Virus record (IMG/VR): IMGVR_UViG_641522650_000003
Origin: a virus
Lineage: Duplodnaviria > Heunggongvirae > Uroviricota > Caudoviricetes
Length of the DNA: 51,299 nucleotides
Strand: one strand, 5' to 3'
Positions 9,001-18,000 of the stretch are shown here, piece after piece (the first letter of the stretch is position 1; every line of letters starts with the position of its first letter). A program made the position numbers.

Positions 9001-12000
9001 GACCATTGCGCGCAAGGCTTCTGGTGATTTGGCCTGGGATTGTTCGTTCATCCCGACTCCTTTTTTGTATAGATAAACCATCAGCTGATAGTTTACCTGA
9101 AGAATATAGAGAAGTACTTACTTAACATTTTCCCATTTGGTACTATCTAACCCCTTTTCACTATTAAGAAGTAATGCCTACTATGACTCAAGTCGCGAAG
9201 AAAATTCTGGTGACGTGCGCACTGCCGTACGCTAACGGCTCAATCCACCTCGGCCATATGCTGGAGCACATCCAGGCTGATGTCTGGGTCCGTTACCAGC
9301 GAATGCGCGGCCACGAGGTCAACTTCATCTGCGCCGACGATGCCCACGGTACACCGATTATGCTGAAAGCTCAGCAGCTTGGTATCACCCCGGAGCAGAT
9401 GATTGGCGAAATGAGTCAGGAGCATCAGACTGATTTCGCAGGCTTTAACATCAGCTATGACAACTATCACTCGACGCACAGCGAAGAGAACCGCCAGTTG
9501 TCAGAACTTATCTACTCTCGCCTGAAAGAAAACGGTTTTATTAAAAACCGCACCATCTCTCAGCTGTACGATCCGGAAAAAGGCATGTTCCTGCCGGACC
9601 GTTTTGTAAAAGGCACCTGCCCGAAATGTAAATCCCCGGATCAATACGGCGATAACTGCGAAGTCTGCGGCGCGACCTACAGCCCGACTGAATTGATCGA
9701 GCCGAAATCGGTGGTTTCTGGCGCTACGCCGGTAATGCGTGATTCTGAACACTTCTTCTTTGATCTGCCCTCTTTCAGCGAAATGTTGCAGGCATGGACC
9801 CGCAGCGGTGCGTTGCAGGAGCAGGTGGCAAATAAAATGCAGGAGTGGTTTGAATCTGGCCTGCAACAGTGGGATATCTCCCGCGACGCGCCGTACTTCG
9901 GTTTTGAAATTCCGAACGCGCCGGGTAAATATTTCTACGTCTGGCTAGATGCACCGATTGGCTATATGGGTTCTTTCAAGAATCTGTGCGACAAGCGCGG
10001 CGACAGCGTAAGCTTCGATGAATACTGGAAGAAAGACTCCACCGCCGAGCTGTACCACTTCATCGGTAAAGATATTGTTTACTTCCACAGTCTGTTCTGG
10101 CCAGCAATGCTGGAAGGCAGCAACTTCCGCAAGCCGACCAACCTGTTTGTTCATGGCTATGTGACGGTGAACGGCGCGAAGATGTCTAAGTCTCGCGGTA
10201 CCTTTATTAAAGCCAGCACCTGGCTGAATCATTTTGACGCCGACAGCCTGCGTTACTACTACACTGCGAAACTCTCTTCGCGCATTGATGATATCGATCT
10301 CAATCTGGAAGATTTCGTTCAGCGCGTGAATGCCGATATCGTGAACAAAGTGGTTAACCTGGCCTCCCGCAACGCGGGCTTTATCAACAAGCGTTTTGAC
10401 GGCGTGCTGGCAAGCGAACTGGCTGACCCGCAGTTGTACAGAACCTTCACTGATGCCGCTGAAGTGATTGGTGAAGCGTGGGAAAGCCGCGAATTTGGTA
10501 AAGCAGTGCGCGAAATCATGGCGCTGGCTGATCTGGCTAACCGCTATGTCGATGAACAGGCTCCGTGGGTGGTAGCGAAACAGGAAGGCCGCGATGCCGA
10601 CCTGCAGGCAATTTGCTCAATGGGCATAAACCTGTTCCGCGTGCTGATGACTTACCTGAAGCCGGTACTGCCGAAACTGACCGAGCGCGCAGAAGCATTC
10701 CTTAATACGGAACTGACCTGGGATGGTATCCAGCAACCGCTGCTGGACCATAAAGTGAATCCGTTCAAGGCGCTGTATAACCGCATAGATATGAAGCAGG
10801 TTGAAGCACTGGTGGAAGCGTCTAAAGAAGAAGTGAAAGCAGCTGCCGCGCCGGTAACTGGCCCGCTGGCAGATGATCCGATTCAGGAAACCATCACCTT
10901 TGACGACTTCGCCAAAGTTGACCTGCGCGTGGCGCTGATTGAAAACGCAGAGTTTGTTGAAGGTTCTGACAAACTGCTACGCCTGACTCTGGATCTCGGC
11001 GGCGAAAAGCGTAATGTCTTCTCCGGCATTCGTTCTGCTTACCCGGATCCGCAGGCACTGATTGGTCGTCACACCATTATGGTGGCTAACCTGGCACCAC
11101 GTAAAATGCGCTTCGGTATCTCCGAAGGCATGGTGATGGCTGCCGGTCCTGGCGGGAAAGATATTTTCCTGCTAAGCCCGGATGCTGGTGCTAAACCGGG
11201 TCATCAGGTGAAATAATCCCCCTTCAAGGCGCTGCATCGACAGCGCCTTTTCTTTATAAATTCCTAAAGTTGTTTTCTTACGATTTTGTCTCTCTCTAAC
11301 CCGCATAAATACTGGTAGCATCTGCATTCAACTGGATAAAATTACAGGGATGCAGAATGAGACACTTTATCTATCAGGACGAAAAATCACATAAATTCTG
11401 GGCGGTTGAGCAGCAGGGAAACGAGCTGCATATCAACTGGGGCAAAGTCGGCACTAACGGGCAAAGCCAGATAAAAAGTTTTGCGGATGCTGCGGCAGCG
11501 GCAAAAGCGGAGCTTAAGCTGATCGCAGAGAAAACGAAAAAAGGCTATGTGGAAAATGCTTCAGCAAACGTGCATATCCCCCCCATTACCAAAGCCACTC
11601 CTGAAGTTGAAACTTCCCCTGAGAGTAAAAACCAACGCCCCTGGCTGGCTGATGATGCGGTCATTCGGCTAACTGACGATATTAATCGATTTGCTTTTCC
11701 TCATCGCTCTCGCCCCAGAGAGATCAATTATCTGCACAAAGATGGTCAAATATGGCAGCTCATCGCGAATAACACCAGGGCATATGATCCCGCCAACAAT
11801 TACCGTTCTTATCCAGAAAACTGGCAGCAGGCTTTTGCTGAGTTACAAATGCGAGTTCAGGGTAATCAACAGACAGGGAGTGCACAATCTGATGCAGCAT
11901 TGCTCTGGAGTTTCTGGAACTCTGAGGTGTACTGGCAATAGCGGACACTACCATTTGTTCTTTTTTTAAGCAGCCATCTGATGATATTTTTCCCTGAAGG

Positions 12001-15000: not shown

Positions 15001-18000
15001 GGTGAACGCACTATGGCGACGCTGGGGCGTCTTATGAGCTTGCTGTCACCCTTTGACGTGGTGATATGGATGACGGATGGCTGGCCACTGTATGAATCCC
15101 GCCTGAAGGGAAAGCTGCACGTAATCAGCAAGCGATATACGCAGCGAATTGAGCGGCATAACCTGAATCTGAGGCAGCACCTGGCACGGCTGGGACGGAA
15201 GTCGCTGTCGTTCTCAAAATCGGTGGAGCTGCATGACAAAGTCATCGGGCATTATCTGAACATAAAACACTATCAATAAGTTGGAGTCATTACCTTGCCT
15301 CTATTGGTGCAACCACCAAAGAAGACGCTGCCAAGACACTTGAGCCGTTAAGCGCCAAATACAAAAACATCGCGGGTGTTGAAGAAAAATTAACCTATAC
15401 CGATACCTACGCGCAGGAAAACGTGACTATCGATATGGAAAAAGTGGATTTTAAAGCCCTGCAGGGTATTTCAGGAATCAACGTTTCTGCTGAAGATACC
15501 AAAAAAGGTATCACTATGGCGCAAATGGAACTGGTGATGAAAGCCGCTGGTTTTAAAGAAGTGAAATAATCTGTCGGCGGCCATGTTTCGCATGGCCGCC
15601 ATACCCGTCTTAGCTTTTCTTCACATGCTGGCGCGCTGCCAGTCCACGCAGAAAATAACGTAAAAATTGATCGCCGCATTCGCGGAAGTTTTTATGATCC
15701 GGTGCACGCATCATCGCCGTAATTTCCGGCATCGAAACGCGGAACTGCTGTTCGGTGAGGATCGCCAGAATGTCATCGGTTTTCAGCGAAAACGCGATGC
15801 GTAATTTTTTTAGCACGATGTTGTTATTAATGCGACGTTCCGGCTCCAGTGCCGGAGCAGACTCATCCTTGCCGCGTTTTTCATAAATCAGGCCATTGAG
15901 GAATGACGACAAAACAATGTCCGGACAACGCTGAAAACCCTCTTCGTCTTCTTTACGTAGCCAGACGGCGATCTGTTCCGCGGTGGCTTCGACATTACCC
16001 AGCGCCAGAATACGCACCAGGTCATTATTATTGGCTTTCAAAATGTAGCGCACGCTGCGCAGAATATCGTTACTTAGCATGAGGCCTTCAGGTGTTGATG
16101 AGGCAAAAAGCCATTTTAGCAGTCTTTTACAGGCCAATCGCCTCTTTTAAGGTTTTCAGATAACGGCGGCTGACCGGCACGGTTAAGCCATTACGCAAAA
16201 TCAACTCGGCCTGGCCGTTATCTTCCAGACGAATCTCCTGTAAATGCGCGAGGTTAACCAGATACTGACGATGGCAGCGCAGTAGTGGTGTACGACTTTC
16301 CAGGGTACGTAATGTCAATTCGGTAAAGCCCTCTTTCCCTTCGTGGCTGGTAACGTAGATACCGCTCATCCGACTGCTGACAAATGCCACATCTTTCATT
16401 TGCAGCAAATAAATCCGACTATGCCCAGTACAAGGGATAAATTTCAGCGCCTGTTGATTTTCTGGTAACAGCGAAACATCCTGCTTGCTGCGTTCCTGCC
16501 GCAAACGCGCCAGCGTTTTCTCCAGTCGCTCTTCATCAATTGGCTTCAGCAGATAATCAAAGGCGTGTTCTTCAAAGGCTTTAATGGCGTATTCGTCAAA
16601 CGCGGTGAGAAAAACAATATACGGACGATGTTCCGGGTCGAGCATCCCCACCATTTCCAGACCACTGATGCGCGGCATCTGGATATCGAGAAACAGCACA
16701 TCCGGGCGCAGTTTATGCACCGCGCCGATCCCTTCCACGGCGTTTGAACACTCACCAACGATTTCAATATCGCTCTGCTCCTGCAAAAATACGCGCAGGT
16801 TCTCCCGTGCTAACGGTTCATCATCGACAATTAAGACTTTAATCATGCCTCGTCCCTCCATGGTAGTCGTAACGTTATTCGGGTGTAACTATCAGGCTCA
16901 CAGGCGACGCTTATCCCATAGTCATCGCCAAACCGTTCACGTAAACGCTTATCCACCAGATTCATCCCCAGCCCACTGGCATTGGTTACCGGTTGATACA
17001 AACCGGCATTGTCTTCGATCTCCAGCATCAAATGTTGCCCCTCACGTCGGGCGCTGATTGCCACTCGCCCTGTATCCAGCAGTTGTGATGTCCCATGTTT
17101 AATGGCGTTTTCCACTATCGGTTGCAGGGTAAACGCGGGCAATTGCTGCTGGGATAATTCTTGCGGAATAGCAATGTTGACCTGCAACCGCGACTGGAAG
17201 CGCGCCTTTTCAATTTGCAGATAAGCGTTCACATGTTCAATTTCGTCGGCGAGAGTAACAAACTCCGAAGGCCGCTTTAAGTTTTTGCGGAAAAAAGTGG
17301 AAAGATACTGCACCAGCTGGCTGGCCTGTTCGCTGTCGCGACGGCTCACCGCTTTAATGGTGTTAAGCGCATTAAACAAAAAATGGGGGTTCACCTGGGC
17401 GTGAAGCAGTTTGATCTCTGACTGGGTGAGCATCGCTTTTTGCCGCTCATATTGCCCGGCGAGGATCTGCGCCGAAAGCAGTTGCGCAATCCCCTCGCCC
17501 AGCGTGCGGTTGATTGAACTGAATAAACGGTTTTTGGCTTCATACAATTTGATGGTGCCCATCACCCGCTGATTTTCACCACGCAACGGAATTACCAGCG
17601 TCGACCCCAGTTTGCATTGCGGATGCAAAGAGCAACGATAAGGTACTTCGTTGCCATCAGCGTAGACCACTTCACCGGTTTCAATCGCTTTTAAGGTGTA
17701 AGTCGAAGATATCGGTTTGCCGGGTATATGGTGGTCGTCACCAATTCCGGTAAAGGCCAGCAATTTCTCTCGATCGGTAATCGCGACTGCACCAATATCC
17801 AGCTCCTGATACAGCACCTGTGCCACTTTCATGCTGTTCACTTCGTTAAACCCCTGGCGCAAAATGCCTTCCGTCGAGGCAGCCACTTTCAGCGCAGTGG
17901 CAGAAAAAGCCGAAGTGTATTTTTCAAACATCGCGCGTTTATCTAGCAATATACGCATAAACAGCGCCGCGCCGACGGTATTGGTGACCATCATTGGCGC

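Follow-up and report, generated by a model that had tools for sequence, protein, structure and literature searches.

The 51,299-nucleotide stretch of DNA analysed here, which we call the window, is 100% identical to Shigella boydii CDC 3083-94 (CP001063.1), and it carries a WGR-domain gene broken by an IS600 element, an IS2 inside that IS600, and an adjoining IS1 at a site from which about 15-19 kb of Escherichia coli genes are absent. The broken gene heads a tandem array of three molR/yehF-like WGR/DUF4132 paralogues located downstream of metG. Its 5′ fragment (codons 1-188; 11357-11922, plus strand) contains the Pfam WGR domain (E 4.9e-20), and the reading frame continues into the IS600 as far as a stop at 11941, which yields a protein of 194 aa. 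E. coli XH990 carries an identical, uninterrupted allele (20138-23937, annotated there as a DUF4132 protein) that matches the window at 100% over 703 bp. K-12 YehF is a good match to the WGR fragment only over residues 1 to about 66, and since K-12 yehF diverges from the interrupted gene after about nucleotide 197, the IS600 site has no counterpart in K-12. As regards membership in the molR/YehF-YehH-YehI group, the WGR domain and the position directly after metG are present in the window, the DUF4132 part is deleted there and seen only in the XH990 allele, and orthology to K-12 yehF extends over only about 66 residues. The boundaries given for these elements in an earlier note on this DNA are correct almost to the single base, and each of its structural inferences holds when the sequence is read and compared with the other copies of these elements in the window.

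The IS600 spans 11923-14522 on the minus strand, and its 2600 bp are made up of 1264 bp of IS600, 1331 bp of IS2, and 5 bp of duplicated target. Without the IS2 and one CCTGT, the remaining 1264 bp differ by 1 base from an intact copy at 49675-50938. The length and the imperfect terminal inverted repeats (TG...CA) are as expected for this element, whose ends read TGAGGTGTACTG... and ...CAGGCTACCTCA, and E. coli DNA with 99.7% identity to it is labelled “IS3-like element IS600 family transposase” in RefSeq. Its proximal part (13657-14522, minus strand), which comprises the left inverted repeat together with orfA (14458-14156) and orfB up to about codon 153, is 100% identical to 50073-50938, while the distal part (11923-12325, minus strand), in which the 3′ part of orfB is followed by the right inverted repeat, is 99.75% identical to the intact copies at 49675-50077 and 43225-43626. 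The domains are divided in the same way, with HTH_Tnp_1 in orfA, HTH_21 and the first half of rve (2-49) in the proximal half of orfB, and rve 54-102 together with rve_3 and rve_2 in the distal half, the IS2 lying between. The element is flanked by CTC on both sides (11920-11922 and 14523-14525), and the empty site in XH990, which reads GGAACTC/T/TACTCTG, has only one CTC, so the repeat is a true 3-bp target duplication and the IS600 a simple insertion in the WGR gene, as the earlier note had proposed.

The IS2 (12326-13656, plus strand) is complete at 1331 bp and 99.7% identical to another copy at 47676-49006. It has terminal inverted repeats at 12335-12367 and 13616-13648, orfA at 12417-12782, and orfB at 12740-13645, with HTH_Tnp_1 and rve domains, and near-identical DNA bears the RefSeq name “IS3-like element IS2 family.” These features are all those expected of IS2, as is the 5-bp duplication that borders it, CCTGT at 12321-12325 (nucleotides 862-866 of IS600 in that element's own orientation) and again at 13657-13661. 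The intact IS600 copies in the window have one CCTGT at this position, which identifies the repeat as a true duplication and the IS2 as a later, nested insertion in orfB, again in line with what had been suggested. The IS2 breaks the integrase-core domain of OrfB near codon 153 of 272; this IS600 copy therefore does not make its own transposase and is dead as an autonomous element, as previously claimed. With both ends preserved, the interrupted copy could nevertheless be mobilised in trans by other IS600 copies.

Next to the IS600 lies a complete IS1 of 768 bp (14527-15294, plus strand) that bridges the deletion. It has the inverted repeats and gene content of IS1 (insA, 14582-14857; insB′, 14902-15279; domains Zn_ribbon_InsA, HTH_Tnp_IS1, and DDE_Tnp_IS1), its ends read GGTGATGCTGCC... 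and ...GGAGTCATTACC, and its identity to E. coli copies that bear the labels IS1A or IS1B is 98.7-98.8%. The element does begin 4 bp (CTCT) past the end of the IS600, and its own end is 1 bp away from the IS600 duplication; this base, a single T at 14526 (plus strand; position 20704 of XH990 locus L002), is the last that the WGR gene retains of its ancestral sequence before the deletion. The two flanks, CCTCACTCT and TTGCCTCTA, contain no 9-bp target-site duplication, and its absence, correctly recorded before, is evidence for a rearrangement and not an argument against the identity of the element as IS1. The far end had been placed at 15297; the IS1 in fact ends at 15294, and 15297 marks the first full yehR codon.

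Directly after the IS1 is a 3′ fragment of yehR (15295-15569, plus strand; nucleotides 188-462, residues 64-153), lacking its own start codon and promoter. The earlier note's reading of this sequence as yehR-like is borne out, since 89 of its 90 residues are identical to K-12 YehR 64-153 and it matches DUF1307 (E 1e-29); annotators have called a 48-aa remnant within it, at 15423-15569. Nucleotide identity to K-12 over 15295-18817 is 97.9%, and the downstream K-12 synteny (yehS-btsR-btsS) extends through btsS and the first 68 nucleotides of mlrA.

IS1 occurs in 4 copies in the 51 kb. Two of these (19039-19806, inverted, and 22825-23592) have 9-bp duplications, ACAGGAGGG and GCATAATTG, respectively, and are simple insertions, whereas each of the two without a duplication (5078-5845 and 14527-15294) occupies a site that lacks E. 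coli DNA, 3,676 bp at the former and 19,080 bp at the latter. The first three copies in the window are mutually 100% identical. A self-BLAST match between the flanks of the bridging IS1 and of the inverted copy at 19039-19806, which raised the question of a duplication split by an inversion, proved to be a chance gapped extension, the inverted copy having its own perfect ACAGGAGGG. We also rejected an exchange of flanks between the two copies without duplications, as these flanks have no 9-mer in common.

Both flanks of the bridging IS1 retain the order and strand that they have in K-12 and XH990, which fits a deletion and not an inversion. The IS1 connects sequences that in E. coli are collinear and widely separated, as the earlier note recognised in proposing an IS1-associated deletion, but its estimate of about 10 kb for the gap was too small. 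The missing interval measures 19,080 bp against XH990 (L002, 20705-39784), the reference that agrees with the window at 100% over the upstream 703 bp, and 14,741 bp (~14.7 kb) against K-12, the latter counted from the last alignable base to yehR nucleotide 188 because the IS600 site itself is unalignable there. Since the number of WGR/DUF4132 paralogues differs among strains, the metG-yehR interval of K-12 is not a dependable standard for comparison. The deletion would have removed all that remained of the three WGR/DUF4132 paralogues, yehK, yehL-yehM-yehP-yehQ, and the 5′ 187 nucleotides of yehR. A PADLOC scan of K-12 YehI, YehK, YehL, YehM, YehP, and YehQ gave no hits, and the lost genes are therefore not a catalogued defence system; a literature search on yehL, yehP, and yehQ, or on Shigella together with yehR, returned nothing relevant.

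Regions rich in insertion sequences are often misassembled, and with three repeat families abutting at this site the pile-up might be suspected of being an artefact of collapsed or misjoined repeats. We assign this a negligible probability, since the five junction strings (60-64 nt) recur unchanged in 7 long loci of separate NCBI assemblies (five complete chromosomes, plus draft contigs of 21 and 101 kb), and in loci L005 and L008 later strain-specific insertions overlie the same scaffold. The truncated 194-aa WGR protein is indexed in ~140 blocks of the collection, and its named full-length members (184-194 aa) are S. boydii. Among 5,426 complete E. coli genomes, none has the junctions contiguously, and the rows reported as “100% covered” consist of two pieces at least 395 bp apart. 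Exact scans for junctions B and C found no match in GTDB species-representative genomes or in JGI metagenome contigs, in both of which S. boydii is evidently unrepresented. The structure is fixed in one S. boydii lineage, to which its junctions are specific, and typing by PCR or from reads could use them to mark that lineage. In annotation, the “WGR domain” (194 aa) and “YehR” (48 aa) reading frames of carriers count as remnants and not genes.

The account that best explains these features is that three or four separate transposition events struck a dispensable locus in the ancestor of this lineage. An IS600 (IS3 family) would have entered the first of the WGR/DUF4132 genes that follow metG, duplicating CTC; an IS2 would later have entered orfB of the resident IS600, duplicating CCTGT and abolishing the element's own transposase; and an IS1 in the locus would have brought about the loss of everything from base 14526 of the WGR gene to yehR nucleotide 188, leaving behind one IS1 with unrelated flanks. 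We put the probability of this overall history (IS600 insertion, nested IS2, IS1-bridged deletion) at about 0.93, a figure that applies to the history as a whole and not to the choice between the two IS1 routes considered below. When intermediates were sought by exact-protein look-up, with MetG and the two remnants (WGR, 194 aa; YehR, 48 aa) as queries, all the genomes retrieved had the whole structure. Because every retrieved genome that has any part of it has all of it, the order of the IS600 and IS1 events, with IS600 presumably the earlier, is not readable from the comparison.

If the DNA was lost in one step, this would have been through intramolecular replicative transposition of a single resident IS1, the classical IS1 adjacent deletion, in which one end of the element attacks a target close by, and what lies between the two leaves as a circle unable to replicate and is lost. 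If, instead, two IS1 copies in the same orientation had inserted independently, each with a 9-bp duplication, one in the WGR gene, 1 bp beyond the IS600 site, and one in yehR at nucleotide 187/188, then RecA-dependent recombination between them would have deleted the interval and left one hybrid IS1. Both routes lead to the same end product, which is the one observed, and with no intermediate state found they are indistinguishable: an IS1 with a duplication at either junction occurs in none of the 5,426 complete E. coli genomes and has no exact match in the genome and metagenome collections, and a chimeric IS1 would be unrecognisable because the first three IS1 copies are 100% identical, so the hybrid predicted by recombination could leave no signature in the sequence. 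Recombination between homologous insertion sequence copies is the route usually cited for Shigella deletions (PMC7373316), and as IS1 is dense here (4 copies in 51 kb, including two simple insertions), a transient direct-repeat pair is plausible. However, this route requires three events, two insertions and a recombination, as against an insertion and an intramolecular attack, and no genome was found with either of the single insertions. On grounds of parsimony we lean slightly toward the one-step adjacent deletion, at a little better than even odds, and regard recombination, which competes only as the mechanism of the third step and not with the overall history, as a credible though less probable alternative.

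A different outcome for the intervening 15-19 kb would be that it was moved elsewhere in the chromosome by an IS1-mediated inversion or translocation. The genome is heavily rearranged, and the other IS600 copies in the window (43225-44487 and 49675-50938) lack target duplications. Just upstream of the window, yehW and yohO are inverted and adjoin an IS66-family element, so that the rcnA-mlrA block as a whole has the opposite orientation to that in K-12. An inversion at the bridging IS1 would have flipped one of its flanks, however, and both keep their ancestral relative order and strand; in addition, the missing segment has no match elsewhere within the 51-kb window, and a circle excised by IS1 would have no replication origin. 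We consider relocation very improbable and infer that the DNA was lost.

For Shigella, loss and rearrangement of DNA through insertion sequences have been described as a hallmark (PMC7373316), and the structure at this locus is ordinary insertion-sequence scarring of this already-known form of genome decay. The IS1-promoted adjacent or IS-bridged deletions of Shigella, treated in general terms in PMC7373316 and exemplified by the cadA “black hole” deletions, likewise show a single IS1 without a 9-bp duplication joining collinear sequences. Those deletions, too, removed dispensable genes in an event that became fixed in a Shigella lineage. The window differs from cadA-type deletions in the locus concerned, here the WGR/DUF4132 paralogues, yehK, yehLMPQ, and the 5′ end of yehR, and in its left end, which is separated by 1 bp from the duplication of an IS600 that was there before or arrived afterwards. 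We know of no anti-virulence role for the WGR/DUF4132 genes, yehK, yehLMPQ, or yehR. Nested insertion sequences are common in Shigella chromosomes and pINV plasmids, and the IS2 in IS600 orfB, with its clean 5-bp duplication, is a further case in which the host element is inactivated and keeps both ends; the 2600-bp composite has nothing unusual about it.

Independent single-IS1 deletions of yehLMPQ without a duplication are found in three genomes, GCA_905330295.2, S1-INA-02-A, and P470, which like the window have one same-orientation IS1 in place of yehL-yehQ. Their deletions are 6.5-6.7 kb long, end in the yehK-yehL and yehQ-yehR intergenic regions, and leave yehR complete, whereas the deletion in the window is ~19 kb and cuts both the WGR gene and yehR. 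The 1-bp spacing between IS600 and IS1 may reflect end-directed targeting, that is, insertion beside the terminus of another element, and the repeated loss of yehLMPQ may likewise reflect selection as opposed to neutral decay, but we regard such readings as unlikely. If selection were involved, it could have acted against an uncharacterised MoxR/VWA/SWIM module, four independent IS1-bridged losses of yehLMPQ having been seen.

The importance of the locus beyond bookkeeping is small. What it offers is a clean, base-resolved case of the stepwise decay of a Shigella genome, in which an insertion would have been followed by a nested insertion and then by an IS1-bridged deletion.

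Direct reading of 10800-16800, set against the window's remaining IS copies, resolves the metG-yehR interval into a nested pair of insertions followed by an IS1 and a truncated gene. Beyond the end of metG (11216), the 5' part of a WGR-domain gene (11357-11922) closes on CTC (11920-11922) and meets the distal part of an IS600 on the minus strand (11923-12325), whose last 5 bases, CCTGT (12321-12325), recur at 13657-13661 on the far side of a plus-strand IS2 of 1331 bp (12326-13656). The proximal part of IS600 (13657-14522) is followed by a second CTC (14523-14525), a single T (14526), a plus-strand IS1 of 768 bp (14527-15294, IS1 copy 2), and nt 188-462 of yehR (15295-15569), with yehS, btsR, and btsS downstream on the minus strand.

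An earlier note described the IS600-like copy as a simple insertion with a 3-bp CTC repeat and IS2 as having entered its orfB with a 5-bp CCTGT duplication, and both descriptions hold. The empty site in E. coli XH990 reads GGAACTC-T-TACTCTG, with CTC once, so the CTC pair is a genuine target duplication made by IS600, and the T at 14526 continues the ancestral sequence. CCTGT likewise occurs once at the IS2 site in both intact IS600 copies of the window; its duplication is therefore real and IS2 arrived later than IS600, an order that is shown directly. The 2600 bp spanned by IS600 break down as 1264 + 1331 + 5; once IS2 and a single CCTGT are taken out, 1 base separates the element from the intact copy at 49675-50938. 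Pfam scans found the expected domains in IS600, IS2, and IS1; IS2 interrupts the IS600 OrfB integrase core around codon 153 of 272, with profile positions 49 and 54 on the two sides of the break. Several E. coli genomes match the 703 bp upstream of IS600 at 100% identity. Elsewhere in the window, 2 direct-orientation IS600 copies (43225-44487, one base short, and 49675-50938), both without 3-bp duplications, flank a TonB-dependent receptor gene (45221-47311, minus) and a second IS2 (47676-49006, duplication ATCAC); this duplication-less pair suggests a further IS600-linked rearrangement at 43225-50938.

How much DNA is missing depends on the reference. K-12 aligns with window 6883-11553 (94.6%) and 15295-18817 (97.9%), with 14,741 bp of unaligned K-12 sequence between these collinear blocks, but K-12 yehF departs from the window's WGR gene after about nt 197 (residue 66), so the IS600 site has no K-12 counterpart and K-12 is the wrong reference for the gap. 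In XH990, the order is 3 tandem WGR/DUF4132 paralogues, yehK, yehL, yehM, yehP, yehQ, and yehR; most of the first paralogue has been lost from K-12. Against XH990, the window lacks 19,080 bp (20705-39784 of that locus), a segment that runs from inside paralogue 1 through paralogues 2 and 3, yehK, and yehLMPQ to nt 187 of yehR. The roughly 10 kb proposed earlier was an underestimate by either measure. The gene beyond IS1 is, as had been claimed, a 3' fragment of yehR: its surviving residues 64-153 match K-12 YehR at 89 of 90 positions. Tandem WGR/DUF4132 number varies in metG-yehK, with 3 in XH990 (20138-31350) and, in K-12 (4475-11912), a set that is fused or reduced, and the window's yehD-metG stretch is 94.6% identical to K-12 and 99.8% to E. 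coli FDAARGOS_943. Neither PADLOC nor a literature search on function returned anything for the lost genes.

IS1 begins 4 bp past the IS600 end without a target duplication, as noted earlier, its flanks being CCTCACTCT and TTGCCTCTA. The window supplies an internal control: IS1 copies 3 (19039-19806) and 4 (22825-23592) are simple insertions with perfect 9-bp duplications, ACAGGAGGG and GCATAATTG, whereas copies 1 and 2 have none and E. coli DNA is absent at the site of each. Copy 1 (5078-5845; flanks CATCGCTAA and CCAGTTGTT) links the rcnB stop codon to the yehC 3' end and replaces 3,676 bp of the XH990 locus (10965-14640) holding yehA, yehB, and the final ~51 nt of yehC; the deletion it bridges is the second of its kind, lying 9 kb from that at copy 2.

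An IS1 that lacks a duplication and sits between collinear flanks is what an IS1-bridged deletion classically leaves, and this supports the deletion suggested earlier. Relocation of the segment is unlikely, since both IS1 flanks hold the ancestral strand and order; within the window, the 19,080-bp segment finds a sole match, the 199-bp paralogous WGR region itself. The deletion would have arisen by intramolecular replicative transposition from one resident IS1 (adjacent deletion) or by recombination between 2 directly repeated IS1 copies, which we put at a little under even odds and which would give the same product. With identical IS1 copies, the sequence favours neither of these routes, and intermediates appeared in none of the collections searched; we lean slightly to the one-step route, which needs fewer events. 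Either IS600 or IS1 may have come first: the IS1 junction may have arisen 4 bp from an IS600 end already in place, or IS600 may have entered 1 bp away from an IS1 end that was already there.

Three other genomes, GCA_905330295.2 (6806-7573 of its locus), E. coli S1-INA-02-A, and E. coli P470 (both 8293-9060), carry one IS1, in the same orientation and without a duplication, in place of yehL-yehQ. Their deletion end points differ (K-12 locus 12565/19113, 12389/~19136, and 12345/19058, respectively), and every one is intergenic, in yehK-yehL or yehQ-yehR; together with the window, these are 4 independent IS1-bridged yehLMPQ losses. In a draft contig (L023, 1-8149), yehR nt 314 leads through yehS into an inverted yehR-yehQ-yehP-yehM-yehL copy (K-12 locus 19539-20670, then 19613 down to 12591), which reflects either a genuine local inversion about yehS or an assembly that wrongly folded back at the terminator between convergent yehR and yehS.

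Two proteins, the 194-aa WGR/IS600 read-through product and the 48-aa remnant of YehR, served to look up carriers by exact match, and NCBI assemblies were returned. CP001063.1, S. boydii CDC 3083-94 (PMC2974192), is 100% identical to window 1357-21941 and has the structure at ~806009-809380. All 5 junction strings are identical in 7 long loci (5 complete chromosomes, 2 draft contigs). The 194-aa protein occurs in ~140 indexed blocks, mostly ~6.1-kb contigs spanning IS1 copy 1 to IS600, whose ends at IS copies are as expected of short-read assemblies; the full-length (184-194 aa) members of its cluster that bear names belong to S. boydii, and among 5,426 complete E. coli genomes no contiguous match to any of the 3 outer junctions occurs. 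Later events on the same scaffold are seen in 2 strains: an extra IS3-family element within the nested IS2 (L005, ~11460-12770) and an IS66-family element ~45-60 bp into the yehR remnant (L008, ~13994-16426). The structure is real, old enough for fixation in its lineage, and still gaining insertions.

Other features lie in or beside the window. A lambdoid prophage remnant (18817-42100) cuts mlrA (yehV) after nt 68 and encodes DinI, an acetyltransferase, tail-fibre assembly and tail-fibre proteins, J, a tape-measure-sized ORF, an S49 protease, and a portal protein that matches its Pfam profile in the C-terminal third alone. The remnant lacks head-proximal and early genes; IS1 copy 3 is close to the attachment junction, and a tail-fibre gene is interrupted by IS1 copy 4. 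Just upstream of the window in CP001063.1 (L019, 1-1300), yehW and yohO are inverted relative to K-12 and abut an IS66-family element, followed by an IS110-family element in rcnA (window 1-3900), so the whole rcnA-mlrA block appears inverted against its K-12 flanks in CDC 3083-94; CP026795 retains thiM-rcnR-rcnA::IS110.

The earlier observation is thus confirmed and its interpretation supported, with the gap size and choice of reference corrected. IS1, IS2, and IS600 are 3 of the 5 elements forming most of the Shigella IS load, and IS-driven gene disruption, deletion, and rearrangement are described hallmarks of Shigella lineages (PMC7373316). The locus shows no departure from this picture and is an ordinary case, in a public genome, of a known process.
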